DNA of 64,000 nt from positions 4,247 through 68,246 of the forward strand of contig JABSOJ010000012.1 in NCBI GenBank assembly GCA_013216005.1, read 5' to 3'. The notes beneath the pieces were generated by a model. The model saw nothing but the letters and a program-made list of their open reading frames with translations, was not told the DNA's origin and ran no database searches. The stretch comes from Alteromonadaceae bacterium. Lineage in GTDB: Bacteria > Pseudomonadota > Gammaproteobacteria > Enterobacterales > Alteromonadaceae. Positions 46,781-63,219 of the stretch are shown piece after piece (position 1 is the first letter of the stretch; each line of letters begins with the position of its first letter). A program made the position numbers and the translations under genes.

Positions 46781-47833
46781 TTAAAATTGTGGACGATCCC
46801 AGGCATCAGCCATGGCAACCCGCACTTTTCTCGGACCAGTGAAAGCCTGTCTGCCATGAACTGATAACACGTTGTCAATCAACATCAGATCGCCCTTCTG
46901 CCAAGTAAACATCTCTTTTTCAGCTAGGTAGGCATCACGCAAGTGGTTAGCAATATCATCCGGTATGCGAGTACCGTCCCCATAGTAAGTATCAAACGGC
47001 AAACCTTCTTCACCCACTTCATTAAGCATGCCTTCCAGTACGTGCTTGGGTAAATTAGCCTGATGCCAGAACGCTATGTGGTTAAACCAGCATTCCTCAT
47101 TGGTTTCTGGATGGAACACAGTAGATGAACGTTTTTGAGTGGTAAACAAACCACCATCTTTTTTCCACTTGAAATCAATCTGGTTTTTTTGACAATAGGC
47201 TTCAACCTCTTTCTCGTTGCGACCTGCAAAAGCATCCTTCCAGTCATAAGCGAGATACTTGCCATAGTTACGGTTAAGACTCCAACCTAACTTGCGAAAT
47301 TTGTCCAGTACATCGGGATCGATTTGATTCATGATCCTTTTACTACAACCTACCGGTGTTTCGCCATCGGTGATAGCCTCGGCTTCACAGAAAAACCACA
47401 CCTTCAGGGCAAAAGTGATTGAAGCGGTATTTTCATTGTGCAGAGCAATGGTTTCATCGTCAGGATATAAGGTTGAGGTAAATACATTACTGGCAATCGT
47501 TTTACGTGGTGAAGAACGTTCAACATATTCAATCAGGCTATAACTAGAATCTTTTACATAATCAATAAATTCAGCATCGCCATAAAGGTCAAAACCGCGA
47601 AACAAAATTACCCCTTTATTAAGCAATTCTTTGTCAATATATTCTTGATTGTGGCGTGTCCACTCTTTGAGGCTGATACCTTCTGCTTTTGGTTGAATCA
47701 ACAAACCAAAATAATCATTACCGAACAGTTCGCTGCTCTCAACCAAATCAGCGCTGGATACTGAAGAGGCGCTACGGGCCCCTCTACGTCGTTTAATCGA
47801 GGGTTTGCTGCTACCAGTGTTTCTGTTTAACAT
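46781..47833 (-). CDS. Stand-alone Fe(II)/2-oxoglutarate-dependent oxygenase, TauD/SyrP/CAS-like (putative amino-acyl beta-hydroxylase)
   Basis: A 350-aa ORF with LFRGF, the LHNENT (HxE) facial-triad motif, GETP, and the distal DNVLSVHGRQAF His/Arg. It is homologous to the domain fused at 38030..38935. AAGGAA lies about 7 nt upstream of the ATG. It sits between an NRPS ending in a C domain and an NRPS starting with a C-like domain. Confidence 0.9.
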   Translation of the reverse strand: MLNRNTGSSKPSIKRRRGARSASSVSSADLVESSELFGNDYFGLLIQPKAEGISLKEWTRHNQEYIDKELLNKGVILFRGFDLYGDAEFIDYVKDSSYSLIEYVERSSPRKTIASNVFTSTLYPDDETIALHNENTASITFALKVWFFCEAEAITDGETPVGCSKRIMNQIDPDVLDKFRKLGWSLNRNYGKYLAYDWKDAFAGRNEKEVEAYCQKNQIDFKWKKDGGLFTTQKRSSTVFHPETNEECWFNHIAFWHQANLPKHVLEGMLNEVGEEGLPFDTYYGDGTRIPDDIANHLRDAYLAEKEMFTWQKGDLMLIDNVLSVHGRQAFTGPRKVRVAMADAWDRPQF

Positions 47834-47859: not shown

Positions 47860-50800
47860 TTAATTAGGGTTTTGGGTAGTGCTTCTTTTACGGATAATTC
47901 TGGGTTTCTTTTTCGCCGAACGTAACTTTCGCTTACGCTCGTGCAACAAATCAAAAAGGTCTGCGAGTAATTTGTCAGGATGGTCACAGATAAATTCAGC
48001 GACAAAATGAATATCACCAAGCAAGTAATTGATATCGCTTTGACTAAACCGCTCTGTGTCATAGCAGGCATACATCTGGATCACATCACGGGGGATCACT
48101 ATTAAGGTCAACGCCATCGGGCTTTCACCATGATGGTTAATATCTTCCAGTGCTAATACGCCACTTTCTGTAGTGTAGCTTTCTTCCACCGGATAGTTAT
48201 TAATGTTCAGCAACACATCAAACAAGTTACCAGCGTTGGTGTCGACCAATTTGTTAATTTCGCCCAAAGGCAAAAAGACATGATCTGATTTATCCTGATT
48301 GACGGTTTTAATAGCATTGATCAAGGTCAGCATATCCTGCTGCATATTTAAACGGGTTCGTGACGGAACCGTGCGAATAAACAACCCGGGCACATTGTCA
48401 ATATTATCAATTTCACCCGGTCTGCCTGAAAAGGTTTCACCATAAATAACATCAAGTTGGTCGCTATAATGCGCAAGAACAATAGAATAAACACAATGAA
48501 TCACATGACTCAACGTTAGCTGGTGCTGCGCCGTAAAACGGGTTATTTTGACAGACTCTGCTTCTGAGAAATCAAGCGAATAATTATGTTTGAAGTTACC
48601 TCCGTCCCCTTCTATACTTTCTTTTTTATCAATATTGAGAACTGTTACGGTATTAAATCCAGACAAGTATTCGCGCCAATATTGACGGCTTCGATCAGCA
48701 TCAGCGGTTTTATCATTCAACCAGCTTAAATATTCTCTGTAATTAGCTGTCGGCTTCATCAGTGGTTCTTTGCCGTCGCTCAATGCTTTATAAGTTGCCA
48801 GCAAATCCCGTAAAACAATCGCCATAGACCAGCCATCAATAATGCCGTGATGAAAATTCCACACAAACTGCGTCAATTGATCCTGCATAAAATACAAATG
48901 CAACTGCATCAACGGCACTTCACTCAAAGTAAAACCTTGTTCTCTTTGATTTTTAAGCTGTTTATCACGTTCAAGTGTGGCTTGATCCAACGAAAAATCC
49001 CGTAAGTCATGTATTTGCCACGGCAGGATCACATCTTTAAAAATAACAAACTTGGGTGAATCTAACCCTTGCCCGGCAAAACCGGCCCGCAGTATAAAAT
49101 GATGACGAATAATACGCTGCCATGCTTGTTGCCATAGTTTAGGATCAAAACTTCCTTTGAGATCGCAAGTAATTTGTTCGAAATACAAGGTATTAGTATC
49201 GGCATACATTCCGTGAAAGAATATTTCTTCCTGAGTACTGGTAACGTTGAAAATATCAATGATCCTGTGTGGTGATTTTTTGGAAAAATCAGCAACAAAT
49301 GCAGTAAGTTTTTCTTGTTCTACAGTGATCAACGGAAAGTCTGATGGTGTATATTCAAAGTGATCACATTGACTACACAACAAAATAAGGTCACGTAAAT
49401 GGTTAAGATATTGTAAAAGAAGCCCTTGCATTGTCTCTTTATTATAACTGAGGGTGTCATATCCCCATTCAACATGCAGTTGCCCCGAACGTATCATGGT
49501 ATTGATTTCAAACGCGTGTGTCCGTTTATCTGAACCACTTCGACTGCCTTTTGGCACAGCTTCCATCTGCTGGTAAATAGTGCCTTCATCAAAAGACTGA
49601 TCCAATTGGCCAAGATAATTAAACAACACTTGTGCCCCCTTGGCAGATTTTAGTGTTTGCGCCTGCTTAGACTGACTCAAGTACCGCAACACACCATAAT
49701 TGAAACCTTTGCCCGGCACAAATTTACGTTTTTCTTTAATATTTTTAAGGGTATTACCCAAGTTACCATCAGGATCTGCTGACAACGCCAAGGGGTAAAT
49801 AGCGGTGAACCAACCGAGCGTATGGGATAAATCAATATCTTCAAACACAGCTTCACGACCATGACCTTCAACATCGATTAGTAACTCGTTGCGACCGTTA
49901 AATTCAAACAATGTTAATACCAATGCGGCTAATAACATGTCATTGATGTCAGTATTGAACATTTGTGAGCTGTCTTTAAGTAAACTTGTCGTTTCGTCGC
50001 TACTTAAAGATACTGTGAGCACTTCACTATTCATTTCCAAGAGGTCAGTGCCTTCACTCCCCTGACCTATAGGCAAACAACCATAATCCTTATTGTGAAC
50101 TGCTTGCCAGTACGGCAATTCTTCCTGTACGATGTCGCTGTCTGCGTAAGACGATAATTTGTCGGACCATTGCATAAATGACGATGTTTTAGCTGATAAC
50201 ACGACAGTTTCACCGTTTAATAGCTCCTGATAAGCAGTGTTTAAATCATCAAGGAAAATCCGCCATGAAATACCGTCGGTGATCAAATGATGCATACTCA
50301 AAAACAGTTTTTTCGATTGAGATTCTGACCACTCAAAACATGCGCTCCCTACCAACGGTCCTTTTGCCAAGTCAAAGCTTCCATGCAAACGGGTCATAAT
50401 ATCGTTGATAAACGCCTGCTGCTCGGTCGCAGGTTTATCACCCATTTGATAATGTTCCAATTTTGGTGTTTCAAACAAGCCTGAAAATACCTGTTGTCCG
50501 TCAATAAAACGAGTTTTAAAAATATGATGATAATTAACAACAACTTCAAACGCCTGTTGCAATACATTGGCTTGCACGTCAGCCGCAATACGGAGCATCA
50601 CTGACTGATCCCAGTGGTGAGGCTGGCTGAAATCTTTTTCAAAGAACCAACGCTGTACAGGAGTCAGGGCAAATGCATTATCGAATTCATCCTGTTCGGT
50701 AATCTGACTGGTCACATGTCCGACATTGGCGGCCAACTGTGAAATGGTCGGATATTTGAACACATCGCTGGTCGAAAATTTCACCCCTTGCTTTTTCAGG

Positions 50801-53800
50801 CGTTCAGTCATTTGAATGGCCAAAATAGAGTCGCCACCCAAAGCAAAGAAATTATCGTTAATTCCAATCAAATCATTTTCAATCAACAGCAATGAAGACC
50901 ACACGGCACTTATCGCCTTTTCAGTCAGGTTGTGCGCTTGTTCATACTCACAGGCTAAATCTTCTCGGCTGAACTGAGGCGCTGGCAAGGCTTTTTTGTC
51001 CAGTTTGCCGTTTACCGTCAACGGCATCGCATCAAGCGTCATAAAATGGGTTGGGATCATGTATTCAGGCAGTGATCGGGCAACAAAATTTCGCAATTGC
51101 TCAACCGACACTTTTTTGCCAATAACTTTTTCGACGATAACATAAGCAACTAATTGTTTTTGTTCATTGTCATTTTGATGACACAAAACCACCGCATCAC
51201 GAATATCCTCATGATCCAACAATACCGCTTCAATTTCTTCTAGCTCAATTCTGAAACCACGGATCTTGACTTGATTATCCATTCGGTCATGATAATTAAC
51301 TTGCCCGTCAAAGCGTAATGAAACCATATCACCAGATTTATACAGCCTCTGTGTTAATTCACCATCAAATGTATGTTCAAAAAAACGTTCTTCGGTTAAT
51401 TCCGGATGATTCAAATAACCTCTGGCCAAGCCTGCACCACCTAACATCATTTCGCCATGAACACCCATAGGTTGTAACTGCATTTGGCTATTGCAAACAT
51501 AAATAGCCATGTCATCCAACGGCAAGCCAATCACACTGCTGTCAGTATTAGTATCCTCTTCATTTATTTGATAAAAAGTCGTATATACGGTGGTTTCTGT
51601 CGGACCATACATGTTGAGCAATTCGGTATGGTCGGTCATACCTGCTTCAAACCATGGTTTGATCTTTCTACAATCAAGTTTTTCACCGGCTAACACAACA
51701 TATCGTAAATGCGAGTGCAGTGCAGCGAAGTTGCATAATGAAATAAAGGGATAAAATGCTGAAGGAGTTTGTGCCATTACGGTGACTTGCTGTTGTTGTA
51801 CTAAGTTAACAAAAGCTTCGCTGTCTTTCGCTGTGTCACCCGATACCACCACAAGTTTACCTCCATGAAACAGAGGACCCCACATTTCAAAAACCGACAC
51901 ATCAAAAGCATAAGAATGAAACAGAGTCCAGACATCCTCTGAGCGAAACTGATAATGACCTTTAACTGCTTCAAATAAACGAATAACATTATGATGTTCA
52001 ACCATAACCCCTTTGGGTTTGCCGGTTGAACCTGAGGTATAAATCACATAAGCCAAAGAAAATGGTGTGATACCACTGTCGTTTGCTTCAATATTTGATG
52101 AACTGTTAGTCGCCAACAACTTCTGACTTTGGGCATCATCAAGTACAATAGTGTCAACACCTTTAACATCTGCCGTCAATGAACATAAATCAGCATGGGT
52201 AAGGATCAATACAGCACCAGCATCTTTAATAACATGCTCAATCCGTTCCTTAGGATGCCCAGAATCCAGAGGGATATACGCGGCTCCGGCTTTTAACACC
52301 GCCAGTATAGCCACCAAAGTGTCCGTCGAACGATGCAAGCACAATGCTACTCTTGATTCTGTTTTGATCCCTTGGTTCATCAGTTGACAAGCCAAACGAT
52401 TGGCTTGTTCATTGAGTTGTTGATAAGTTAATTGCTTACCGTCAGGCACCATCACTGCCACATTATCAGGATAAGCAACCACTTGCGCCTCGAATTTAGA
52501 GACAATAGTCAAACCTTCACCATCATGGTTTGTACGACAAGCCAACTTCGCCATGATCTGTTGCTGCTCACCTTTAGGTATCATTGGATACAGGTCGAGT
52601 GGGGTATCACTTTGTTTCGCTACTCCCGACACAATATAAGTAAAATGGCGCAGCATTTGATTAGCATTATCGCTAGTAAATAAACTGGTGTTGTAAATCC
52701 AGGTCAAATCAACTTTGTCAGCCGATTCTGTCACTTCCAAAGTAACATCAAATTGAGAGGTGGTTTGTGGTAAGCCAAGTGATTTCGCCGCTACCGATCG
52801 ACCTAGTACAATCGCATCATCACTATCGTTGAGCAATGCACCCATAGACTTGTTGTCCGCCAGCCCCGCATTTTGATAAACAAATGCAACCTGAAACACC
52901 GGTGAATAACTGGCATGACGAGATGTCTGAGTAGCGACCAGATCAAACGGATAATTCTGGTGAGCCAGCGCCGCCAGTGAGGTGTTTTTGACTTGTTGAA
53001 TCAACTCGGCAAAACTCGCTTCTGAATCAAAGAAAGTACGCAACGCTACCGTATTAACAAAATAACCAACCAAGGGTGACAACTCACTGCTCGGTCTGCC
53101 CAATGTTGGTGTTCCTACAATAATATCGTTCTGACCACTGTAACGGTAAAGCAATAAATTAAAACAACCCAACAACAGTTGATTTAAGGTCACTCCATGT
53201 TGCTGTGCCGTGGTCTTTAACTCGGCAAGCATGTTAGCCCCGAGTGTGACCGAAGTAACATCTCCGGTATAAGTTTGACTTTGCGGTCTGGGAAAGTCAG
53301 CTGGTAACGTTAACAACGGCAACTCACCGGCTAACTGTTGAGACCAATAAGTTTGTGATGCTACCCACGCGTCTTGCGCTAGCTGCTCCCCTTGCCAATA
53401 AGCAAAATCTGCATAAGACAAACTCAACGGGACTAACCCGTCAAACCCCTTGCCATCGTAAATATCGCCAAATTCATTAAGCAGGCACACCAGTGAATGA
53501 AAATCTATGGTGATATGATGGAAGGTCATCACAACAAAATAATCACCGTCTCTGATCACCAGTTCTATTCGAAACACAGGGCCATTGGTCAAATTAAACG
53601 GCACCGCAGATTTTTTAGCCAACAATGCACGCACACCTTCGTCATCAACCCCGTCAGCTTGCGATTGACTGAAAAACGATCCTGCCTCCGCATTGATGTG
53701 TTGCATCACAGTACCATCCACCAACCGATAACTGGTGCGTAATACACTATGGCGTTGTGCCAACATCTGCCACGCTTCTTCAAAACGACTAATATCCAAC

Positions 53801-56019
53801 GGTGCATCAAATTTCATCGCCTTAGCTATATGATAAGCACTGCTGTCAGGGGTCATCTTGTGTATGGACCACATAGAGGTCTGACCACGAGATGCCGGAT
53901 AATCTTGTCGTGACGACTCCGTGATCACCGTCATCTTGTTGCTTTGACGACTTGAAGTAAACTTTTCATACACCAGTATAAACACATCGGCAATACTGTC
54001 CTGACCAAATAATTCATGCACTGGCAAACTAATCGACAGCGCATTCTCCAACCGGTACTGGAACTGCACCGCCTTGAGTGAATCCATACCCTGAGACAAA
54101 ATCGAACTTTTCAGGTCAATATTGTCATTAGCGCACTGCAACATCGTCGCCAATTCTTCGAGTAAAAAAGTGTTTAGCTGTACTTTCCGCTCAGCTGTCG
54201 GCAACTGCAATAATGCCGCTGTATCTATCTCTTGTACCGCGCCGTCTTGCCTGTCTACGTGACTGAATATCTGTTCGTGAAAACCAACCAGAGTCTCTTC
54301 AATAAAGCTCAATCGGGTTAACTGACGTTTAACCTTACCGCTGGAAGTCTTGAGTAATTTACCGATACGCACCAAAATAATAGCGTAAACCTCTAACCCA
54401 AACTCCAACGAAATTTTTTGCCTGATCAATGACACGATATTTTCTTGATCCGCCTTAACCGACTTGGTTGCCCTGACCTCTTGCACTAACACAAGTTTTT
54501 CATCACTATTCACATCAACCGAAAAAGCCGCCGCCGAGCCAATTGGATAATCCGGCAACACCTCTTCTATCGCAAATTCGATATCCTGCGGGTAATAATT
54601 GCTGCCGCGGATAATAATCACATCTTTGATCCGTCCGCCGATATATAATTCGTTTTGATAAATAAACCCGAGATCACCCGTCCTGAGATAGTGAATATCG
54701 TCACCGGGTAAACGAGCCTGATATGTTTCGACTGTCGCTTGCTCTGCTCCCCAGTAACCTAACGCTACACTGGGTCCTGTGATCCAAATTTCACCCATTT
54801 TATTGTCCGGCACAACCGCCAAAGTGTAAGGGTCGACAATAGTTACTTCATGTTCAGTATGCAACTGACCACATCCAACCAGCTGATTTAACTGCTGATT
54901 TTTAACAGCTTCGCCAGTCACTTCAAGCACTTGATATTGGCTTAATGCTTCTGCACTAAAATCTGTGATCACCACTTTTTTAGTTTTATCGCCACCAGTC
55001 AAAAAAACTGTGACTTCGGCCATACCGTAACTGGGATAAAACGCATTATCAGCAAAACCGGCCTTACTAAATTTGGCTTCGAAATCTTTCAGTGTTTTAA
55101 CCCGAATAGGCTCACCGGCATTAAACGCCACTTTCCAGTGAGACAAATCCAATGTGAGAACGTCTTCATCTTTGATCACCTTGACACAATGATCATAAGA
55201 AAAATTAGGTCCACCACAAATAGTGCCCCGATAGGCTTCGATTGTCCTGAACCAACCCAATGGATCACGAATAAAGTCAGGAGGCATCATGATCACCGAT
55301 TTAGCACCGATATAAACTGGTAACAGCATGGTGTTAACCAAACCCAAATCGTGAAATAAAGGTAACCAGTTAACAAAAACATCCTGATCGCTACAATCAG
55401 TTGCGACAATCAAAGAATCGAGATTAGCCACCACGTTTTGGTGAGAAATAATAGCTCCTTTGGGGATCCCGGTCGAACCAGAAGTATATTGCAAATAAGA
55501 TAACGGTTGGCTTGGTGTAATATCACTAATTTCAGTCAAGGGTGTTTCTATGAGTTGTTCAAAGGTCAACAATTCACCGCTAAAATTAAATTCACTGCCA
55601 TCAAAATACGCTCTGGTAGTATCAATGTCTTGAGATAGACAAATAGCTGCTGTGGCCTGACAATTATTGACGACAGCATCAGTTCGGGAATGTTTATCTT
55701 TTAGTCTCGCAGGATATAGCGGCACAGCTACACGATCGGCAAACAAACAACCAAAAAATCCGGCAATGTAACCTAACCCGTTCGGCAACAACAATGCCAC
55801 TCTGTCACCACGATCACCGATACTATTCAATCCGGCAGCTACTTGTCTGGACTTTTGTTCAAGTTCAGCAAAAGTCAATTCTACCTTGGTTTGACCATTG
55901 TCTTGAATAAACACAAACGCAATACCATCCGGATTTTGTTGCGAACGATAAAGCAGCTGATCAATAATAGTGTTGTTTTCAGAACTTCTACTAATCGAGC
56001 TTAAATTATTGGCATTCAT
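47860..56019 (-). CDS. Lipo-initiation NRPS (FAAL-T-C-A1-T-E-C)
   Basis: The N-terminal ~590 aa form a fatty acyl-AMP ligase (YLQYTSGSTGIPKG, GDLGF, GRIKDVIIIRGSNYYPQDIE). Then a carrier domain (GMDSLKAV) and a C domain with HHITIDFHS. A1 has VIYTSGSTGKPKG, code DVFAVAMVYK (unassigned). Then T GGDSILAIQM, E HHLITDGISWRIF, and a final C with HHGIIDGWS. The protein ends in a basic tail (KKKPRIIRKRS) with no A-T after that C domain. Confidence 0.95.
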   Translation of the reverse strand: MNANNLSSISRSSENNTIIDQLLYRSQQNPDGIAFVFIQDNGQTKVELTFAELEQKSRQVAAGLNSIGDRGDRVALLLPNGLGYIAGFFGCLFADRVAVPLYPARLKDKHSRTDAVVNNCQATAAICLSQDIDTTRAYFDGSEFNFSGELLTFEQLIETPLTEISDITPSQPLSYLQYTSGSTGIPKGAIISHQNVVANLDSLIVATDCSDQDVFVNWLPLFHDLGLVNTMLLPVYIGAKSVIMMPPDFIRDPLGWFRTIEAYRGTICGGPNFSYDHCVKVIKDEDVLTLDLSHWKVAFNAGEPIRVKTLKDFEAKFSKAGFADNAFYPSYGMAEVTVFLTGGDKTKKVVITDFSAEALSQYQVLEVTGEAVKNQQLNQLVGCGQLHTEHEVTIVDPYTLAVVPDNKMGEIWITGPSVALGYWGAEQATVETYQARLPGDDIHYLRTGDLGFIYQNELYIGGRIKDVIIIRGSNYYPQDIEFAIEEVLPDYPIGSAAAFSVDVNSDEKLVLVQEVRATKSVKADQENIVSLIRQKISLEFGLEVYAIILVRIGKLLKTSSGKVKRQLTRLSFIEETLVGFHEQIFSHVDRQDGAVQEIDTAALLQLPTAERKVQLNTFLLEELATMLQCANDNIDLKSSILSQGMDSLKAVQFQYRLENALSISLPVHELFGQDSIADVFILVYEKFTSSRQSNKMTVITESSRQDYPASRGQTSMWSIHKMTPDSSAYHIAKAMKFDAPLDISRFEEAWQMLAQRHSVLRTSYRLVDGTVMQHINAEAGSFFSQSQADGVDDEGVRALLAKKSAVPFNLTNGPVFRIELVIRDGDYFVVMTFHHITIDFHSLVCLLNEFGDIYDGKGFDGLVPLSLSYADFAYWQGEQLAQDAWVASQTYWSQQLAGELPLLTLPADFPRPQSQTYTGDVTSVTLGANMLAELKTTAQQHGVTLNQLLLGCFNLLLYRYSGQNDIIVGTPTLGRPSSELSPLVGYFVNTVALRTFFDSEASFAELIQQVKNTSLAALAHQNYPFDLVATQTSRHASYSPVFQVAFVYQNAGLADNKSMGALLNDSDDAIVLGRSVAAKSLGLPQTTSQFDVTLEVTESADKVDLTWIYNTSLFTSDNANQMLRHFTYIVSGVAKQSDTPLDLYPMIPKGEQQQIMAKLACRTNHDGEGLTIVSKFEAQVVAYPDNVAVMVPDGKQLTYQQLNEQANRLACQLMNQGIKTESRVALCLHRSTDTLVAILAVLKAGAAYIPLDSGHPKERIEHVIKDAGAVLILTHADLCSLTADVKGVDTIVLDDAQSQKLLATNSSSNIEANDSGITPFSLAYVIYTSGSTGKPKGVMVEHHNVIRLFEAVKGHYQFRSEDVWTLFHSYAFDVSVFEMWGPLFHGGKLVVVSGDTAKDSEAFVNLVQQQQVTVMAQTPSAFYPFISLCNFAALHSHLRYVVLAGEKLDCRKIKPWFEAGMTDHTELLNMYGPTETTVYTTFYQINEEDTNTDSSVIGLPLDDMAIYVCNSQMQLQPMGVHGEMMLGGAGLARGYLNHPELTEERFFEHTFDGELTQRLYKSGDMVSLRFDGQVNYHDRMDNQVKIRGFRIELEEIEAVLLDHEDIRDAVVLCHQNDNEQKQLVAYVIVEKVIGKKVSVEQLRNFVARSLPEYMIPTHFMTLDAMPLTVNGKLDKKALPAPQFSREDLACEYEQAHNLTEKAISAVWSSLLLIENDLIGINDNFFALGGDSILAIQMTERLKKQGVKFSTSDVFKYPTISQLAANVGHVTSQITEQDEFDNAFALTPVQRWFFEKDFSQPHHWDQSVMLRIAADVQANVLQQAFEVVVNYHHIFKTRFIDGQQVFSGLFETPKLEHYQMGDKPATEQQAFINDIMTRLHGSFDLAKGPLVGSACFEWSESQSKKLFLSMHHLITDGISWRIFLDDLNTAYQELLNGETVVLSAKTSSFMQWSDKLSSYADSDIVQEELPYWQAVHNKDYGCLPIGQGSEGTDLLEMNSEVLTVSLSSDETTSLLKDSSQMFNTDINDMLLAALVLTLFEFNGRNELLIDVEGHGREAVFEDIDLSHTLGWFTAIYPLALSADPDGNLGNTLKNIKEKRKFVPGKGFNYGVLRYLSQSKQAQTLKSAKGAQVLFNYLGQLDQSFDEGTIYQQMEAVPKGSRSGSDKRTHAFEINTMIRSGQLHVEWGYDTLSYNKETMQGLLLQYLNHLRDLILLCSQCDHFEYTPSDFPLITVEQEKLTAFVADFSKKSPHRIIDIFNVTSTQEEIFFHGMYADTNTLYFEQITCDLKGSFDPKLWQQAWQRIIRHHFILRAGFAGQGLDSPKFVIFKDVILPWQIHDLRDFSLDQATLERDKQLKNQREQGFTLSEVPLMQLHLYFMQDQLTQFVWNFHHGIIDGWSMAIVLRDLLATYKALSDGKEPLMKPTANYREYLSWLNDKTADADRSRQYWREYLSGFNTVTVLNIDKKESIEGDGGNFKHNYSLDFSEAESVKITRFTAQHQLTLSHVIHCVYSIVLAHYSDQLDVIYGETFSGRPGEIDNIDNVPGLFIRTVPSRTRLNMQQDMLTLINAIKTVNQDKSDHVFLPLGEINKLVDTNAGNLFDVLLNINNYPVEESYTTESGVLALEDINHHGESPMALTLIVIPRDVIQMYACYDTERFSQSDINYLLGDIHFVAEFICDHPDKLLADLFDLLHERKRKLRSAKKKPRIIRKRSTTQNPN
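54250..56019 (-). other. FAAL (fatty acyl-AMP ligase) loading domain of the initiation NRPS (approximate bounds)
   Basis: The motifs listed for CDS 47860..56019. The carrier Ser motif GMDSL lies at about 54068..54100. Confidence 0.8.
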
Positions 56020-56081
56020 TGATAAATCCTAAGAACTAAGTTCACGAATATTCAGGAACTTATGTCTAGTCAATTACATTA

Positions 56082-57413
56082 TTATTTAACGCTTTTTTGA
56101 AAACTATAAACTGAACCCAAATCCATAATTTGAGTCAATTCATCCAAGGCAGTCCAAGATTCTCTGGCCAACAAGGGATCTTGCAAATCGACCGGAGCTA
56201 GTTTGTCTCTAAAATGTTTTTCAACCCAACTGGTCAGCCGTTTATATAACGATTCAGATAACAATGTGCTGGGATTTACTCCCGTTAACGCATTTTCATC
56301 CATCACCATCCTAAACCTCAAACAAGCAGGTCCTCCGCCATTAGCCATGCTTTGATTTAGGTCAACAAACAACAGTTGGTTAATAGGATTGTCTCGGCTA
56401 ACCACTTCCTGAAGGTAATGATAAACATTGTCGTTTTCACGACACTCAACGGGTAAAATCAACGTCATTGAACCGTCAGGTAATGAAATCAATTGAGAAT
56501 TAAACACATAGGTACTGAGCGCTTCACCGAGAGTGACCTCACTTTCAAGTGCTTTGATCAGATGAAAAGGAGTGTCCTGACCCATCATTTGGTGAATCTG
56601 GTCTAATACCGCGTCACTATTTATGAATGCTTTTTCATGATAAAACATTACATTACGGTTATTCACAGAGATCACATCATTATGAAAAACCCCCTCTTCT
56701 ATCGCTTCAGGGTTTTGTTCAATAAACAGGGTTTTGTTGGCATCTAACAGGTGTAATCTGGAAATTGACTTGGAAGCAGCCAACGTTTGTCGCGCTATGC
56801 TCTTGGTTTCGCGACCCCGGCGTCCGTAAACAAAAACCTCTATGGCTTTTTCATGGTATTGCTGACATATGCGCAAATGGTTGGCGGCACCTTCATCCCC
56901 CAAAAAGGCTACCGCTGGTAGGGCTTTATGATGGACGAAATAATGCGGATCACGAAAAATCAACTTAAGAAATTCGCCACTGGCATTGGTTTCTAAAGAA
57001 CGATGGAACTGGCTGGAAAGATTGGCCGGTGTCACATGAATTTTTCCGTCAGCAGTATCAGAGGCCGGAGAAATAGTAGCTGAATTTGCCGTCCACATGG
57101 CTGATGAAGAATAACATGACCTAAAAACTCTCGGGCTTTCAACAGATGCTTTTGCAATCAAGACTTCGTCTGTGCCACTAAATCCCAGATCACGTAGCGT
57201 ATTCAGGTCAGGTCTTTCCTGAGGCGGAAAAACCCCTTGAACTAAACCCAAATCATGCATGAGTTTCATTTTTTTTAATCCTTGCAATGCAGCCAATTTG
57301 GGATTAGAAATACTATTTTTGTTGGAGTAAGAGGCAACGTTACCGCTACCCAACCCCGAATAGTTATAGCTTGGACCAACCAATCCATCAAAATTAACTT
57401 CTGTCATCCGCAT
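56082..57413 (-). CDS. astB: N-succinylarginine dihydrolase family protein (AstB-like guanidino-group hydrolase)
   Basis: The 443-aa product aligns end to end with my recollection of E. coli AstB: EVNFDGLVG, GDEGAANH, GVFHNDVI, SMANGGGPACLR (catalytic Cys context) and LGSVY near the C-terminus. It is co-oriented with the FAAL-NRPS start, 62 nt upstream of it. Confidence 0.9.
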   Translation of the reverse strand: MRMTEVNFDGLVGPSYNYSGLGSGNVASYSNKNSISNPKLAALQGLKKMKLMHDLGLVQGVFPPQERPDLNTLRDLGFSGTDEVLIAKASVESPRVFRSCYSSSAMWTANSATISPASDTADGKIHVTPANLSSQFHRSLETNASGEFLKLIFRDPHYFVHHKALPAVAFLGDEGAANHLRICQQYHEKAIEVFVYGRRGRETKSIARQTLAASKSISRLHLLDANKTLFIEQNPEAIEEGVFHNDVISVNNRNVMFYHEKAFINSDAVLDQIHQMMGQDTPFHLIKALESEVTLGEALSTYVFNSQLISLPDGSMTLILPVECRENDNVYHYLQEVVSRDNPINQLLFVDLNQSMANGGGPACLRFRMVMDENALTGVNPSTLLSESLYKRLTSWVEKHFRDKLAPVDLQDPLLARESWTALDELTQIMDLGSVYSFQKSVK

Positions 57414-57444
57414 AACATTTAGTTCCTACCGTTACTTACCACAG

Positions 57445-57507
57445 TGTTAGCAAAAACCTATTGGCACTACAACAAATTTCATTTTATTCTTCACAGTTTT
57501 GCTAACA
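57445..57507. promoter_or_regulatory. 11-bp inverted repeat pair TGTTAGCAAAA (57445..57455) / TTTTGCTAACA (57497..57507) in the divergent intergenic region
   Basis: Read directly. The arms are perfect reverse complements separated by 41 bp, and both are preceded by CACAG. They lie 32-94 bp upstream of the astB-like start. No function has been demonstrated. Confidence 0.25.
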
Positions 57508-57585
57508 GTACCAATCCTTTACCTAACTTAGCCTATCAACCTACACTTCAATAAAACAAAGGTATCCAGAGTTTATGATGTTGAA

Positions 57586-57600
57586 TATTCCAATGGAATA
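57586..57600. promoter_or_regulatory. Perfect 7-1-7 palindrome TATTCCA-A-TGGAATA, a candidate operator
   Basis: Read directly. It lies 136 bp upstream of the acylase GTG and 173 bp upstream of the astB-like ATG. Confidence 0.25.
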
Positions 57601-57735
57601 ATAGTCCAAATTCGTGACAATTCTATTTTTTATAATAAAAAAAACCTTTTGTGCTAATTCCAACTTTTCTGGCGAATCTCAGGATCGCTGCTAAACTTCT
57701 GGACCAGCAATCAAGAGCTTTAGAGAGAATTTATC

Positions 57736-60216
57736 GTGTTTAAAACATCCCCCTTTATGAAGCGAACATTGATATTTATAGGTATCCCCATACTTGTTTC
57801 AATAGCCGTAGCCATCAAATATGTATATGGCAGTTTGAAAGTTGAGTCCGTCTATGTGGTCAAAAAAGGTCTGCAAGGTTTAGACAAAATCGTGCAAGTT
57901 ACTCGTGATGACAAGGGAGCCTTGTTCATCAAAGGTGAAACGGATAAAGATGTTTATTTTGCTTTAGGTTTTGCCCATGCTCAGGATCGAATGTGGCAGC
58001 TTGAATTACAACGCAGAATAGCCAAAGGTACTCTAAGTGAAATTTTCGGTCGCGAATCACTCAATAGGGATATTTGGATGCGTACCCTAGGGCTGGCTGA
58101 AGCGGCTAAATCAGCTTGGACGGCGATTAGCCCACAAACTAAATCTGCCTTGACCGCCTATACCAATGGGATTAACGCCTGGCTTGAATCCAACCCTGCG
58201 TTGTCACCTGAATTTATGCTGCTTGAAAACAAACCGGAACCTTGGACCGAACTGGATTCACTCTCATGGATGAAAGTATTCTCATTAAACCTCGCCGCCA
58301 ACATGTGGAACGAACTAGCCAATATGGCCGCTGGTCAATCGCTAACCCAAGAACAAGCTGCCGATATTCTCAAAACATACCCTGAAACAGGTCCCGTAAC
58401 TATACCCAATACTACAGCCAACCAGCTACCGCAACCAGATAAAAATAAACGTTTAGAAAAGGCACAACATATTGTTGCCCAACTGTTTAAAATTAAGCAA
58501 TCGATGGAAAAAGAACTGGCTATCGGCGGCAAATATGTTGGTAGTAATGCTTGGGTGGTTTCCGGTAAACTGACTGACAATGGTCAGCCAATTCTGGCTA
58601 ACGACCCTCATATGGGCATCCAAATCCCGGCCCTTTTTTATTTTGCTTCACTCAAGGGGGATAAACTCGATGTATCAGGCATGACGCTAGTCGGATTACC
58701 TGTGGTGATATTTGGTCGCAATAAAGACATAACTTGGGGCGGCACCAATATGTTTGCCGATACTCAAGACTTGTATTTTGAACAAACCAATGGCGAAAAT
58801 GCTGCCGAATATCGCGTTGGTGACCAATGGGAAAAGTTCGACACCCACAAAGAGATTATCCATGTTAAAGCACCCTTTCCCCAGTTTTTACGACCCAAAC
58901 TAAAACCTGTCGAGATTCAAGTACGTAAAACCCATAACGGTCCTGTTGTTTCAGACGCAAGTGGAATGTTCGACCAACCCATCTCACTAAAATGGACGGC
59001 ATTGGAAGATAACGATACAACACTTGAAGGTTTTTACCGACTTGGTTATGCAACCGACTGGAATAGCTTTAAAGCAGCCATGAAATACCATGTGGCGCCT
59101 GCATTAAACATGCTTTATGCCGACACAAATAACAACATCGGATTTTTGGGGATTGGTAAGATACCGGTGCGAAGTCTGGGTGAAGGTCAATTCCCTACTG
59201 TTGCCTGGAATGGTCTAAACAAGTGGACAGGTTACATTCCTTTTGATCAATGGCCATACAGTTATAATCCGGATCAGGGATATCTGGTATCGGCAAACAA
59301 CAAAAATGTTAATTCCGACTACCCCTATTTCATTTCACATGACTGGGCTCCATCGACACGAGCCGAGCGTATTGAGCAGCTATTAACCGCACCAGATGCA
59401 GTATTGAATATTGAATATATGAAAAAAATACAAGCCGATACCTTTGATATCAGTGCCACCAAACTGCATAAAACACTATCCGCATACAAACCACAAGATG
59501 AACGTCAAACCGAGGCGATTAATTTGATAAAGGTCTGGAATTTGGATATGGCCATTGACCAATCTGCAGCAAGCATATTTTACGTATGGACAAGACACCT
59601 TCGCACCCACCTGTTTTCAGATGAATTAACAAGTTCCTGGAACCAAAAATCGCAAGTAATTATTTTCGATAATTTTATTGCCGAGGTCTCTTATGATCAA
59701 ATCAACAAAGTCTTGACCGACACAACTCCTAACTGGTGTGACGATGTTAATACTGACATAACAGAGAGCTGCGAAACGGTCTTGTCGAACTCATTGAACG
59801 ACGCACTTAATGAATTGGATCGGTTTGGAGGGTCAGATATGGACGACTGGCAATGGGGTGGGCTACATATAGCAGTATACCGCCACACCCCTTTTAGCGG
59901 TCAGAACCTACTTGACAAGATGTTCGAACGACGAATCGCTAATGGAGGATCACCTAACACCGTCAATTCCGCCAGTGCCTACTACAACAAAACAGAAGGC
60001 TATGAACAGGGATCAGGCGCCACGTTCAGACAAATTGTACAGATGAACAAGAAAAAAACGCGACACTTATATATGAATTCCACAGGTCAGTCTGGACATT
60101 TTCTGAGCCCTTATTATGACAATATGATAGAGCCTTTTCAAAATGTCCATTATTTTGAAGCTGGCGAATTGAAGCCCGGTACAACCACCGACACCTATAA
60201 ACTTAAACCGGAATAA
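57736..60216 (+). CDS. Penicillin-amidase-family Ntn hydrolase (QuiP/PvdQ/aculeacin-acylase-like N-acyl amidase), membrane-anchored or secreted
   Basis: The 826-aa product has an N-terminal hydrophobic helix (RTLIFIGIPILVSIAVAI). It carries YFALGFAHAQDRMWQLELQRR, typical of the family. The autoproteolytic junction G|SNAWVVSG places the nucleophile at Ser270 (58543..58545), followed by ANDPHMG. The start is GTG with a purine-rich AGAGAGA upstream. Confidence 0.9.
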   Translation: MFKTSPFMKRTLIFIGIPILVSIAVAIKYVYGSLKVESVYVVKKGLQGLDKIVQVTRDDKGALFIKGETDKDVYFALGFAHAQDRMWQLELQRRIAKGTLSEIFGRESLNRDIWMRTLGLAEAAKSAWTAISPQTKSALTAYTNGINAWLESNPALSPEFMLLENKPEPWTELDSLSWMKVFSLNLAANMWNELANMAAGQSLTQEQAADILKTYPETGPVTIPNTTANQLPQPDKNKRLEKAQHIVAQLFKIKQSMEKELAIGGKYVGSNAWVVSGKLTDNGQPILANDPHMGIQIPALFYFASLKGDKLDVSGMTLVGLPVVIFGRNKDITWGGTNMFADTQDLYFEQTNGENAAEYRVGDQWEKFDTHKEIIHVKAPFPQFLRPKLKPVEIQVRKTHNGPVVSDASGMFDQPISLKWTALEDNDTTLEGFYRLGYATDWNSFKAAMKYHVAPALNMLYADTNNNIGFLGIGKIPVRSLGEGQFPTVAWNGLNKWTGYIPFDQWPYSYNPDQGYLVSANNKNVNSDYPYFISHDWAPSTRAERIEQLLTAPDAVLNIEYMKKIQADTFDISATKLHKTLSAYKPQDERQTEAINLIKVWNLDMAIDQSAASIFYVWTRHLRTHLFSDELTSSWNQKSQVIIFDNFIAEVSYDQINKVLTDTTPNWCDDVNTDITESCETVLSNSLNDALNELDRFGGSDMDDWQWGGLHIAVYRHTPFSGQNLLDKMFERRIANGGSPNTVNSASAYYNKTEGYEQGSGATFRQIVQMNKKKTRHLYMNSTGQSGHFLSPYYDNMIEPFQNVHYFEAGELKPGTTTDTYKLKPE

Positions 60217-60235
60217 TGTAAGGGACCTAAACAAC

Positions 60236-61930
60236 ATGAAATTATTTGGTACATTTACTGAATTTGCACCCAACAAAGTGTTTTTGTCCATTACCATAGG
60301 AGCCATGGCTGGTATTTGTTATGCCATGTTAATTCCAATAGTGATCAGCAGTTTACCTACAGAGGTTGGTGCACTGGTCAATGCAACCAGTGACACTGAA
60401 AGTTTTCTGTTTTTTGATGTTAGTCGCTATAAATTTGCCTCGGTGTTTTTTATCTGCTGCCTGGGGATTTTAACAACCCAAACATTATCACAAATCCTGC
60501 TGGTACAAGTTGGTATGGACGTTACCACTGATCTGCGAGTACGTATTTACAAGCGTATCAGCAAGGCACCAATAGCAGATTTGGAAAGACTTGGCTCTGC
60601 CAAATTGATGGCCACCATTACCACAGATGTTAACCGGGTGGTCATGGGAGCAAAAACCCTGCCTGACCTGCTAATATCAGGGGTAAGTTTGATGGGAATA
60701 TTGAGTTATTTGCTGTATTTAAATGTTGAAGTGTTTTTTTATGCGATTGGTGCAATTCTGTTCGGTTCAATCACATACATGATCCCCATGTACATCGGTA
60801 GTTTGTACTTTAGACGTGGCAGAGACAGTATCGACAAACTGCACGAGGCAATAAGAGGGCTGATTCATGGAACCAAAGAGCTGAAACTCAACAAGGCTAA
60901 ACGTACTGCCTATTTTGAAGACCATTTATTAAAACATGAATATTCGGTTTTGAGCAATGAAAAACGGGGGAGTATCATAGTAACCACCGCGATTAACTAC
61001 GGTGATTTAATCAGCTTTTTCGTTATCGGTTTTGTTGCGTTTATATTTATAAGCTACAACAGCATGGCCAACGACAAGTTGGCCGCTGTGATCATGGCAC
61101 TGTTATACTTATCTACACCTGTTGCTAAAATACTCAATGCGTTACCACAAATATCCGTGGCCAATATTTCCTTAGCAGCAATCAATAATATTTTTAACAG
61201 TTTACCGGAAGAAAAAGCCAATGAAGAATTAATTGAGCAAAAAAACTGGCAAACATTAAGTCTCCGAGGCATTGAATACCACTACGAAGATGCCAACAGT
61301 ACTTTTAACCTTGGTCCTCTGGATTTTGATATTCACAAAGGTGAAGTTACCTTTATCATTGGCGGCAATGGTTCTGGCAAATCAACACTCAGTAAAATTA
61401 TTTCTTTGTATTACCAACCAACTCATGGCGATATCTATTTCGGTCCCAACCGCGTGACGGACGAATCGCTCAACAGTTGCCGGGAATATATTTCAGCCAT
61501 ATTTACCGATTATTATCTATTTAACAGCATATTGGGTGAGTTTAGCGAAGAAGACCAGATACAACTGGACAAATTTATGAAAGAGCTGGCTCTAGACACC
61601 AAAGTAACCGTTAAAGACGGTGAATTCTCAACAATATCCTTATCAGATGGTCAAAAGAAACGTTTGGCGTTACTGGTATCATACATTGAAAACAGGGACA
61701 TGTATTTGTTTGACGAATGGGCCGCGGATCAAGATCCAATGTTTAAAGAGACCTTCTATCATCAAATTTTGCCCAAACTTAAAGCTCAGGGCAAAGCGGT
61801 ACTTGTTATAAGCCACGATGACCGTTATTTTGATATTGCAGATCGGGTTATCACCCTTGAAGAAGGTAAAATCAAATCGATTATGAACAACAAAGGCGAA
61901 CACCTAACAATACTGGAAAATGTGGTATAG
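60236..61930 (+). CDS. ABC exporter, fused TMD-NBD, cyclic-peptide transporter type (SyrD/PvdE/YojI-like)
   Basis: The 564-aa product has hydrophobic N-terminal TM segments. Walker A is GGNGSGKST, the signature is LSDGQKKRLAL, and Walker B has the family-typical LFDEWAADQDP. It starts 19 nt after the acylase stop. Confidence 0.9.
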   Translation: MKLFGTFTEFAPNKVFLSITIGAMAGICYAMLIPIVISSLPTEVGALVNATSDTESFLFFDVSRYKFASVFFICCLGILTTQTLSQILLVQVGMDVTTDLRVRIYKRISKAPIADLERLGSAKLMATITTDVNRVVMGAKTLPDLLISGVSLMGILSYLLYLNVEVFFYAIGAILFGSITYMIPMYIGSLYFRRGRDSIDKLHEAIRGLIHGTKELKLNKAKRTAYFEDHLLKHEYSVLSNEKRGSIIVTTAINYGDLISFFVIGFVAFIFISYNSMANDKLAAVIMALLYLSTPVAKILNALPQISVANISLAAINNIFNSLPEEKANEELIEQKNWQTLSLRGIEYHYEDANSTFNLGPLDFDIHKGEVTFIIGGNGSGKSTLSKIISLYYQPTHGDIYFGPNRVTDESLNSCREYISAIFTDYYLFNSILGEFSEEDQIQLDKFMKELALDTKVTVKDGEFSTISLSDGQKKRLALLVSYIENRDMYLFDEWAADQDPMFKETFYHQILPKLKAQGKAVLVISHDDRYFDIADRVITLEEGKIKSIMNNKGEHLTILENVV

Positions 61931-61949
61931 CAAACGAGGGGTTTAAATT

Positions 61950-63197
61950 TTGGACGTTAAAAGAAACAAATCATCGAAAAACACACCGAAGTGGCAAAAA
62001 GCACTCATTATCGCTGCCGTATGTCTGGGCGTGTTAAGTTACTGGAAAATGAGTAACAATGAGAGCACGTCGTTACGAATGAATGATATATTGTTAAGCA
62101 AAGTGAGAAAAGGTGATCTGGCTGTTGAAGTCACAGGTTACGGAAGTTTACAGTCCAAAGTTCAACAATTGATCACAACCCAGACACCTGCAACCATCGA
62201 AAAGATCATTTTAAAACCTGGTGCAGTGGTTACCCCTGATAAAGTGATCATGATCTTGAATAACCCGGAACTAAATCAAGAAGTAGAAAAGACCCGCCTT
62301 GAGCTTGCACAAGTCAAGGCCAACCTGAGAAAACTCAGGAGTAACCAAAAACGTGAGTTACTAAATGAAAAAGAAAACTTTCAGGAAATCCGTTCGCAAT
62401 ACGAAGGAGCCAAACTAACATTGAATGCAGAATTGCAAATGTCTAAGTTTGGTATCACATCTGCAATTAAAGTAAAAAAAGCACAACTGTTAGAAAAACA
62501 ATTGTCTCAACGGATCAATATCCTTAAAGAAAAATCCGTTCAGTTGGATATAATCCATCAAGAAGATGCCAATATAGAATTGGAAGCCATTAAACTCAAA
62601 CAAATTGAGTTAGACAATATAAGTGCCCGGCTGGATCGGTTAATCGTTAAGGCAAGAATTGAAGGTGTGTTACAAAGCCTTTCTGTTGAATTAGGTCAAA
62701 GTGTTATCCGCGGACAAACTCTGGCGATGGTAGGCAGTACCAAAGAACTGATCGCCATGATCAAAGTATCTCAGGGGCAAGCACAAAAAATACAACCCGG
62801 TCAAAAAGCAATTATTGATACCCGTACCAGTAAAATTGAAGGTATAGTTGCCAGAGTCGACCCTACGGTTGTGAACAACACGGTAAATGTTGAGATTAAC
62901 CTACCGAAAAATCTGAGTGCAGATGCCCGACCACAACTAAATGTAGACGGCACTATTGTGATCCAGAGTCTCAAAAATATCTATTACATAGAAAAACCGA
63001 CCAATGCAGCCGAAGGGCGTAACAGCAGCTTGTTTAAACTCAACGACTCACTGGACGGTGCAGAAGCGGTAGCCGTTAAGTTTGGTGTTATATCTGGTCG
63101 CTATATTCAGTTAGTTTCACCGTCAAGCGAAAATGATACATATATAATTTCAGATACCAGCGCTATTTTGACCAATAGCGTTGATATTTCTCAGTAA
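61950..63197 (+). CDS. Efflux periplasmic adaptor (HlyD/MacA-type membrane fusion protein)
   Basis: The 415-aa product has one N-terminal TM segment (ALIIAAVCLGVLSYW), a long coiled-coil segment (residues ~110-240), then beta-barrel-like repeats. The start is TTG with GAGGGG 8 nt upstream. Confidence 0.85.
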   Translation: MDVKRNKSSKNTPKWQKALIIAAVCLGVLSYWKMSNNESTSLRMNDILLSKVRKGDLAVEVTGYGSLQSKVQQLITTQTPATIEKIILKPGAVVTPDKVIMILNNPELNQEVEKTRLELAQVKANLRKLRSNQKRELLNEKENFQEIRSQYEGAKLTLNAELQMSKFGITSAIKVKKAQLLEKQLSQRINILKEKSVQLDIIHQEDANIELEAIKLKQIELDNISARLDRLIVKARIEGVLQSLSVELGQSVIRGQTLAMVGSTKELIAMIKVSQGQAQKIQPGQKAIIDTRTSKIEGIVARVDPTVVNNTVNVEINLPKNLSADARPQLNVDGTIVIQSLKNIYYIEKPTNAAEGRNSSLFKLNDSLDGAEAVAVKFGVISGRYIQLVSPSSENDTYIISDTSAILTNSVDISQ

Positions 63198-63219
63198 TTA
63201 AAGACACAGACTAATTAAT

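Follow-up and report, generated by a model that had tools for sequence, protein, structure and literature searches.

An S45 acylase outside the PvdQ lineage, linked to an exporter and a FAAL-initiated NRPS in an Alteromonadaceae bacterium, may remove the lipid tail of the cluster's own peptide

In pyoverdine biosynthesis the peptide chain is started on a fatty acid (lipo-initiation), the acylated precursor is exported across the inner membrane, and PvdQ then removes the acyl group (PMC6206403). Tem25 (encoded within the telomycin cluster), GdnD (glidonins), BntA/MhtA (marinobactins) and aculeacin A acylase (AAC) are all placed in a PvdQ/AAC "lipopeptide acylase" group (PMC13592322), separate from a second group comprising penicillin G acylase (PGA), cephalosporin acylases and type-B N-acyl-homoserine lactone (AHL) acylases. 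Two other acylases of this kind have been described. CcsQ of cyanochelin C is a cyanobacteria-specific enzyme that groups with glutaryl-7-aminocephalosporanic acid (GL-7-ACA)/cephalosporin acylases and is found in clusters with a fatty acyl-AMP ligase (FAAL) and beta-hydroxyaspartate (beta-OH-Asp) machinery, the product being non-acylated (bioRxiv 10.64898/2026.07.24.740629). PdnM of pandorachelin, which contains a HemS-like domain and occurs solely in Pandoraea, is essential for delipidation (PMC13592322). Here we analyzed a 64-kb stretch of an Alteromonadaceae bacterium genome (contig JABSOJ010000012.1, positions 4,247 to 68,246; referred to as the window), in which an S45-family N-terminal nucleophile (Ntn) acylase gene lies between a FAAL-initiated nonribosomal peptide synthetase (NRPS) operon and an exporter gene. 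With moderate confidence, we propose that the fatty tail of the peptide is removed after export by this acylase, such that the PvdL/PvdE/PvdQ logic of pyoverdine is carried out through a different acylase lineage.

The map of open reading frames (ORFs) showed the window to be almost wholly one biosynthetic gene cluster, with 12 ORFs of at least 150 aa and a G+C content of ~42% throughout. The minus strand carries eight genes, running from 57413 to 202, and the plus strand four, within 57736-63966. The region examined here is, on balance, best read as the initiation end of a ~62-kb hybrid lipopeptide cluster of NRPS and polyketide synthase (PKS) genes, incorporating 12 amino acids and one ketide unit, together with an export and maturation cassette.

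The initiating megasynthetase, NRPS1 (2719 aa; 47860-56019, minus strand, as are all of its domains), was dissected by scanning the entire protein and fragments of it against Pfam and NCBIfam, and by a domain map of the assembly line made with hidden Markov models built from the window's own domains. The order found was FAAL, acyl carrier (ACP), condensation (C), adenylation (A), peptidyl carrier (T), epimerization (E) and C. An earlier note on this DNA had read the line as FAAL-T-C-A-T-E; all six of those domains were confirmed by profile, whereas the seventh, a post-E C domain, had been omitted, and position 50200, which the note took as the start of the region, falls inside the E domain. 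The FAAL-type domain occupies aa 16-580 (54280-55974). Its top six NCBIfam matches were the NRPS/PKS model NF004282 (446 bits, model positions 9-566) followed by five FAAL families (331-384 bits), including PRK05850 (384 bits), FadD32 (373 bits) and PRK09192 (366 bits). All six scores lie under the whole-protein cut-offs, which were written for stand-alone enzymes, and PF23024 was matched at 29.8 against a cut-off of 27. The in-cis acyl carrier domain follows at aa 613-694 (53938-54183; PF00550, PF23297), with the serine motif GMDSL read from the sequence, and then the first C domain at aa 704-1155 (52555-53910; PF00668). By these profile matches NRPS1 has the FAAL, in-cis carrier and C-domain layout of lipo-initiation. 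The first C domain, which would accept the acyl-ACP donor, has HHITIDF in place of HHxxxDG, phenylalanine standing for the usual glycine, and this phenylalanine is kept as HHIAMDF (aa 841) in the NRPS1 homologue of a metagenome contig, L087.

The remaining domains of NRPS1 point to a D-configured first residue. The A domain (aa 1176-1672; 51004-52494; TIGR01733, 444 bits against 317) and T domain (aa 1702-1764; 50728-50916; PF00550) are followed by an E domain (aa 1776-2243; 49291-50694; TIGR01720, 123.9 bits against a cut-off of 74.2) and the second C domain (aa 2249-2703; 47911-49275; PF00668). An all-against-all comparison of the C-like domains clustered the E domain with the window's two other E domains, and the post-E C domain with the other post-E C domains (NRPS4, aa 1598-2068; NRPS5, aa 71-552); a C domain of this one distinct group follows each of the three E domains, as expected for acceptors of D-configured donors. 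By its predicted domains NRPS1 is equipped to load a fatty acid from the FAAL onto the in-cis ACP, to condense it onto residue 1 and to epimerize that residue. Because the E domain and a matching post-E C domain are both present, the nascent chain is predicted to start as N-acyl-D-Xaa, which agrees with the earlier suggestion of a fatty acyl-D-residue. The 10-residue substrate codes of the A domains were taken from an alignment to GrsA-PheA, and the code of this first A domain, DVFAVAMVYK, matches no assignable substrate and is neither Asn-like nor Arg-like.

The likeness of NRPS1 to PvdL is close in layout, both having an N-terminal acyl-AMP ligase and in-cis carrier followed by C-A-T. NRPS1 is collinear with NF004282 at model positions 9-566, 665-1116 and 1132-1633, and we take this model to be one built around PvdL. 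The resemblance to PvdE and PvdQ consists of an exporter of the TIGR01194 family and an S45 Ntn acylase that is predicted to face the periplasm, and a MacB-type pump, recalling PvdRT-OpmQ, is present in five of six related loci that were looked up. The locus differs from that of pyoverdine in that residue 1 is epimerized, the product is a 12-residue NRPS-PKS peptide, and the 64 kb hold no TonB receptor, chromophore-maturation or hydroxamate genes. The acylase, moreover, is not a PvdQ orthologue and has an uncleaved-looking membrane anchor instead of a signal peptide.

The acylase precursor is encoded at 57736-60216 on the plus strand (826 aa). It matches the penicillin amidase profile PF01804 with 685.8 bits against a cut-off of 21.3 over residues 53-808, covering both the alpha and beta subunits. 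The database call places the start at ATG 57757. We consider GTG 57736 the likelier start because it restores a conserved N-terminal motif (VFKTSPF, matching the homologue consensus MFKSYP) and is preceded by a purine-rich stretch. Counted from the GTG, aa 12-30 (57769-57825, plus strand) form a hydrophobic helix predicted to be a signal anchor: it has a Kyte-Doolittle value of 2.40 over 19 residues, is the only stretch of its kind in the enzyme, comes after K and R, is kept in most homologues and is helical in the AlphaFold2 model. Ser270 (codon 58543-58545, plus strand), in the sequence YVG|SNAW, aligns to beta-chain residue 1 of the solved penicillin and cephalosporin acylases and is the predicted N-terminal nucleophile bared by autoproteolysis at G|SN. 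These features bear out the membrane helix and intact processing site claimed in the earlier note. Across 18 homologues (ATG numbering), G262, N264, D283, H285 (beta23) and N514 are invariant and S263 is kept in at least 90%, while the stretch before the nucleophile is poorly conserved and has a low predicted local distance difference test (pLDDT) score. Cysteines 661 and 672 (ATG numbering) are also invariant, which would fit an extracytoplasmic disulfide.

The lineage of the enzyme is a different matter. The earlier note had called it a lipopeptide-type acylase of the PvdQ/aculeacin/polymyxin kind, and this could not be upheld. The PvdQ equivalog NF051460 scored 61.7 bits against a cut-off of 950, with a match limited to residues 251-473. 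Among solved relatives, the closest by sequence was the D-succinylase of Cupriavidus sp. P4-10-C (PDB 7EBY/7EA4; 7EBY E value of about 4e-66, about 25% identity over residues 37-789), followed by PGA (1.8e-38), GL-7-ACA acylase (1e-33) and, far behind, PvdQ (1.5e-7). A fold search with the AlphaFold2 model gave the same picture, with 7EBY at TM-scores of 0.73/0.78 and PvdQ first appearing at rank 45. Judged by these comparisons, the acylase is on the PGA/cephalosporin acylase/D-succinylase side of the S45 family and outside the PvdQ lineage, from which position AAC, Tem25 and MhtA are set apart by the published grouping. It thus resembles Tem25, GdnD, BntA/MhtA and AAC in its proposed role, all of which are Ntn acylases that strip lipo-initiated NRPS peptides of their N-terminal fatty acid, and differs from them in grouping with D-succinylase, PGA and the cephalosporin acylases. 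Its gene lies in the cluster, in contrast to GdnD, BntA and MhtA, which are encoded outside theirs. CcsQ and PdnM are nearer in that both are cluster-encoded acylases outside the PvdQ clade, although no pairing with a TIGR01194 exporter is described for either; these two were compared with the window enzyme by description only. D-succinylase has the same ~820-aa architecture, yet it acts on N-succinyl-D-amino acids, is D-selective for the amine part and has no reported NRPS link.

Position beta24 is Arg in D-succinylase and Met in the window acylase, and it is Leu in 146 of the 154 family members scored. Met or Leu here would fit a hydrophobic acyl group, if the role we infer for the D-succinylase Arg is right. 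Beta24 was also considered as a marker of the cluster-linked clade and was rejected, as Leu/Met occurs throughout the ~800-aa family and only D-succinylase has Arg.

Directly after the acylase, at 60236-61930 on the plus strand, lies a gene for a fused permease/ATPase ABC exporter of the cyclic-peptide (SyrD/PvdE/YojI) subfamily (TIGR01194, 375.2 bits against 286.2), as the earlier note had proposed; the YojI equivalog NF007813 scored below its cut-off (385 against 604). An HlyD-type membrane-fusion (periplasmic adaptor) protein (61950-63197, plus strand; PF13437, PF16576 and a weak TIGR01730 match) and a type II thioesterase (63220-63966, plus strand; PF00975, 143.8 bits) complete this operon, and homologues of the thioesterase are also present in four of the related loci described below (L002, L005, L083 and L084).

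From these components the following order of events may be proposed. The ABC transporter would flip or export the N-acyl peptide to the periplasmic face, where the acylase, anchored on the outer side of the inner membrane and brought to its mature form by cleavage at G|S270, would hydrolyze the fatty acyl-N bond and free the amine peptide; an adaptor-dependent pump would then expel the deacylated peptide. Deacylation may be an obligatory maturation step or a partial remodelling. The acyl-carrier logic put forward in the earlier note therefore stands insofar as an acylating module, an exporter and an Ntn acylase are all present and the acylase clade is NRPS-linked, but not in its assignment of the acylase to the PvdQ lineage.

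The linkage of the acylase to NRPS genes was examined in other genomes, where identity to the window acylase reaches only about 50% in the closest homologues. Scanning one genome for each species gave 80 acylase loci. Six of these, from a Rhodanobacteraceae metagenome-assembled genome (MAG), Kangiella, Colwellia, Rheinheimera and two Pseudoalteromonas, encode acylases of 40-46% identity, and all six have an ABC gene of 44-53% identity directly after the acylase and beside an NRPS gene starting with a C domain. The NRPS gene follows the ABC gene in five and lies divergently upstream in the sixth (L006). An NRPS gene thus adjoins the acylase in 6/6 loci at ≥40% identity versus 1/74 loci at ≤38% (Fisher p=2.3e-8). 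Six further contexts were drawn from homologues of 45-50% identity, from Paraneptunicella aestuarii, a Pyrinomonadaceae acidobacterium and four MAGs, and in each of them the acylase and a 48-54% identical ABC gene lie inside an NRPS cluster. TauD and CmlA-like hydroxylases are usual in these, with a MacB-type pump in five of the six and an adaptor gene in at least three. TauD genes of 34-38% identity accompany the acylase in L082-L086, L089 and L090. When pooled, all 12 full contexts sampled (acylase ≥40% identical) are NRPS clusters with a 44-54% identical ABC gene immediately downstream, and an NRPS gene starting with a C domain is visible in nine. Average-linkage clustering on identity separated the cluster-linked acylases from the rest of the family, and the N-terminal C domains of the related clusters formed one coherent group across phyla. 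The junction itself recurs in L087, an 8-kb contig of another metagenome, which encodes the acylase N terminus (51% identical), a divergent astB (75%) and then the FAAL-NRPS1 (62%). Given this clade-specific co-location with exporter and NRPS, we consider the acylase to be dedicated to the cluster, and with the clade bound to NRPS clusters in this way, the most economical reading is that the enzyme deacylates the peptide made by its own cluster.

The same data bear on the proposal that the enzyme is a general acylase of AHLs or N-acyl amino acids, akin to the type-B AHL acylases (QuiP, HacB, AiiC) or to D-succinylase, serving quorum quenching or scavenging and unrelated to the NRPS product. 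The wider ~800-aa family is widespread and lies outside NRPS clusters in 73 of the 74 distant loci, 11 of which have an acyl-CoA-ligase-like neighbour suggestive of fatty-acid salvage. AHL hydrolysis has been reported for PGA-type enzymes and for the S45 acylase HacB (PMC5474475), and the nearest solved structure is a D-succinylase. However, all 12 sampled contexts of the 40-50% clade are NRPS clusters with the matching exporter, the acylase/astB/NRPS1 junction is kept in L087, the D-succinylase Arg at beta24 is replaced by Met/Leu, and the acylase and NRPS operons have a 322-bp control region in common, in a divergent arrangement that is kept in L087. We therefore regard a general acylase as quite improbable.

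A more serious competitor to deacylation as maturation is that the lipopeptide is the active end product and that the acylase serves self-protection or remodelling, deacylating part of the pool or molecules that re-enter the cell. The gene context would be identical under both. Acylated glidonins inhibit their producer and deacylated ones do not, a function of this kind being proposed for GdnD (PMC10587159) and discussed for Tem25; PdnM sets the ratio of lipidated to delipidated product as a functional switch (PMC13592322); and deacylation of marinobactin is optional. In contrast to the gene for GdnD, which lies 1 Mb from the glidonin cluster (PMC10587159), the acylase gene of this clade is strictly co-inherited with the exporter, beside the initiating NRPS wherever this is visible, in both Gammaproteobacteria and Acidobacteria, and so looks core rather than accessory. 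On this evidence an active lipopeptide is rather doubtful, while deserving to be kept in mind.

A third view is that the acylase cleaves another bond, releasing the whole acyl-D-Xaa1 unit as in a prodrug and so acting like ClbP and XcnG of colibactin and xenocoumacin, or that it is a transacylase. In those systems, too, the chain opens with an acyl-D-residue and is exported before being processed in the periplasm. The selectivity of D-succinylase shows that discrimination of D-configured amine parts is within the reach of this family branch, and S45 enzymes such as penicillin G acylase are able to catalyze acyl transfer. ClbP and XcnG nevertheless belong to the unrelated S12 family and cut after D-Asn, not at the acyl group. 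No S12 peptidase was found among the 12 ORFs of at least 150 aa in the window, all of which are accounted for and include no peptidase. With a first-residue code that is not Asn-like, this disposes of the colibactin-type N-acyl-D-Asn motif, which the earlier note had cited among its precedents. To our knowledge, characterized S45 enzymes all pocket the acyl group and cut the adjoining acyl-N bond. In addition, module 1 lacks an E domain in relatives of the same acylase clade, the first residue is not Asn, and a literature search gave no precedent. Cleavage elsewhere, or acyl transfer, accordingly has very little probability.

With cleavage of the fatty acyl-N bond as the preferred reaction, the D-configuration of residue 1 appears to be incidental to the clade. 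A D-residue at position 1 was considered as the constant partner of the acylase clade and was rejected, as L003-L005 have a starter C domain (Cs) in the order Cs-A-T, with a C domain directly after it and no E domain between; the additional N-terminal HH....GD motif of dual E/C domains was found in no C domain of any locus compared. A conserved first residue was likewise rejected: five or six relatives have an Ala-like code, DLF(T/N)NAL-TK, others differ, and the window differs from L087. Because the D-residue is not conserved and residue 1 varies, the acyl-D start is best seen as a peculiarity of the window cluster and not as a defining trait of the clade. An acyl-D scissile bond would also have precedent, since GdnD cleaves lauroyl-D-Met-D-Asn-Pro-Val-D-Phe (PMC10587159). 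In the light of this, and of the published cases of PvdQ, Tem25, PdnM and CcsQ, the view that cleavage at an acyl-D-residue would be a new combination is overstated.

Several points weigh against post-export deacylation of the product. The first C domain of NRPS1 groups with elongation-type C domains and not with the N-terminal starter-C clade of the relatives, and the residue 1 code differs between the window and L087; the acylase would for these reasons have to tolerate differing N termini. The ABC exporter and membrane-fusion protein could export across both membranes at once, bypassing a periplasmic step. The predicted topology of the acylase is a hydropathy argument (Kyte-Doolittle), and the acyl pocket is unreadable from the AlphaFold2 model (mean pLDDT of 72; predicted template modeling score of 0.79). 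Among solved structures the nearest enzyme has small N-succinyl-D-amino acids as its substrates, not lipopeptides, and the substrate of the window acylase is assigned from gene context alone in a clade that has no characterized member. Finally, the contig ends only 100 bp past the thioesterase gene.

The gene between NRPS1 and the acylase encodes an AstB-like guanidino-group hydrolase (443 aa; 56082-57413, minus strand; TIGR03241, 606.3 bits against 538.3). It heads the NRPS operon, ending 62 bp before NRPS1 begins, and diverges from the acylase across the 322-bp intergenic region (57414-57735) that separates the astB-NRPS and acylase-exporter operons. A consensus promoter and terminator scan of this region was uninformative, as sites were no more numerous than in shuffled sequence. 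The acylase had been described as divergent from the NRPS itself; the two are on opposite strands, but the AstB-like gene intervenes and is the acylase's actual divergent partner. Its position heading the NRPS operon is kept in the metagenome contigs L087 (933-2384) and L088 (311-1762). The Cys-His-Glu triad is retained, with E174, H244 and C364 aligning to E. coli AstB 1YNF under the triad numbering that we take to apply to the E. coli enzyme. The protein is a divergent, long-branch sequence, being ~54% identical to 118 AstBs whose mutual median is 72%, and it departs from them at 16 of the 165 columns that are near-invariant, eleven of these changes being common to a syntenic relative, P0122 (L52M, T180L, G190A, deletion of P203, P206I/L, E212A, G251N, L367F, E375A, Y401F and S22G/A). 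No other ast genes were found in the 64-kb window by ORF list and Pfam. The protein therefore has the equivalog score and triad of AstB but neither the AST-pathway context nor an orthologue-level sequence, and acting on an N-acyl-arginine intermediate or supplying ornithine from arginine are both possible roles.

A broader proposal, which we advance only tentatively, is that the acylase clade and its TIGR01194 exporter form an unrecognized export-and-delipidation cassette for NRPS clusters of Gammaproteobacteria, Acidobacteria and other phyla, representing a third, PGA/D-succinylase-like lineage of lipopeptide deacylases, which here would act on an acyl-D-residue beside an AstB paralogue whose substrate would be new, either an N-acyl-arginine intermediate or arginine in free form for the supply of ornithine. 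A literature search found no paper on this acylase clade, on its pairing with the exporter or on a characterized cluster containing it; papers on acylases of Alteromonas stellipolaris and P. flavipulchra were set aside because they concern other acylases. Were the cassette real, many NRPS clusters initiated by a starter C domain or a FAAL would make peptides on a cryptic lipid tail. If the deacylation proposed here takes place, N-terminal structure predictions would be wrong for a whole set of lipo-initiated NRPS clusters of marine Gammaproteobacteria, Acidobacteria and soil MAGs, several of which look like clusters for beta-hydroxylated peptides of the cell-wall-antibiotic type, the mature molecule being the free peptide. 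Cryptic lipidation could then be recognized in genomes simply by the acylase-exporter pair, and an S45 acylase lineage would have been recruited independently to the maturation of lipopeptides, in a field where new types have been reported from 2023 to 2026. No new principle would be opened, since the logic is that of pyoverdine and telomycin.

The remainder of the assembly line, NRPS2 to NRPS6, spans 202-46780 on the minus strand and was annotated from the ORF list, Pfam searches on pieces, the domain map, the A codes and the C/E clustering. It contributes 11 more A domains, one module of ketosynthase, acyltransferase, ketoreductase and ACP domains (KS-AT-KR-ACP), a fused TauD domain, two additional E domains, two C-like domains that are degenerate and a terminal thioesterase (TE) domain at the end of NRPS6 (4620 aa), for a cluster total of 12 A domains and one ketide unit. 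The KS-AT-KR-ACP module lies inside NRPS4 (22330-26841, minus strand) after a Phe-type A-T pair with the code DAWTVAAVCK. This arrangement predicts a statine-like beta-hydroxy-gamma-amino unit, making the cluster an NRPS-PKS hybrid by its predicted domains. The first C domain of NRPS4 has the motif PHSISDG.

Degenerate C-like domains without HHxxxDG open NRPS2 and NRPS3 (45428-46744 and 36792-38012, both minus strand). Each is preceded by a TauD-family dioxygenase, the first a stand-alone gene between NRPS1 and NRPS2 (46781-47833, minus strand; PF02668, 103.5 bits) and the second fused to the C terminus of NRPS2 (38063-38947, minus strand). The layout resembles the pairs of interface domain and beta-hydroxylase that make beta-OH-Asp, and by this analogy the two pairs would imply two beta-hydroxylated residues. 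A siderophore product was not adopted despite the two interface-like pairs, because no receptor, hydroxamate or catechol genes were found in the 64 kb.

Three observations from the compared loci stand apart from the cluster itself. An AMP-binding, acyl-CoA-ligase-like gene adjoins the distant acylase (32-36% identical) in L016, L017, L025, L027, L031, L032, L033, L041, L052, L054 and L064, which are 11 of the 74 distant loci and are not cluster-linked; this points to salvage of the fatty acid released by deacylation among the "housekeeping" members of the family. A Chloroflexota homologue of 32% identity (L067, 77-7788) lies directly after an NRPS gene (A-C-A), the sole NRPS neighbour among these 74, and could be an independent recruitment of the acylase family to an NRPS cluster. 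At the edge of one related acylase/exporter/NRPS cluster (L086, 19916-21739) is an aspartyl-tRNA-synthetase-like gene (tRNA-synt_2 and GAD domains), which might serve as a self-resistance copy and so hint at the target, or be no more than a neighbour.

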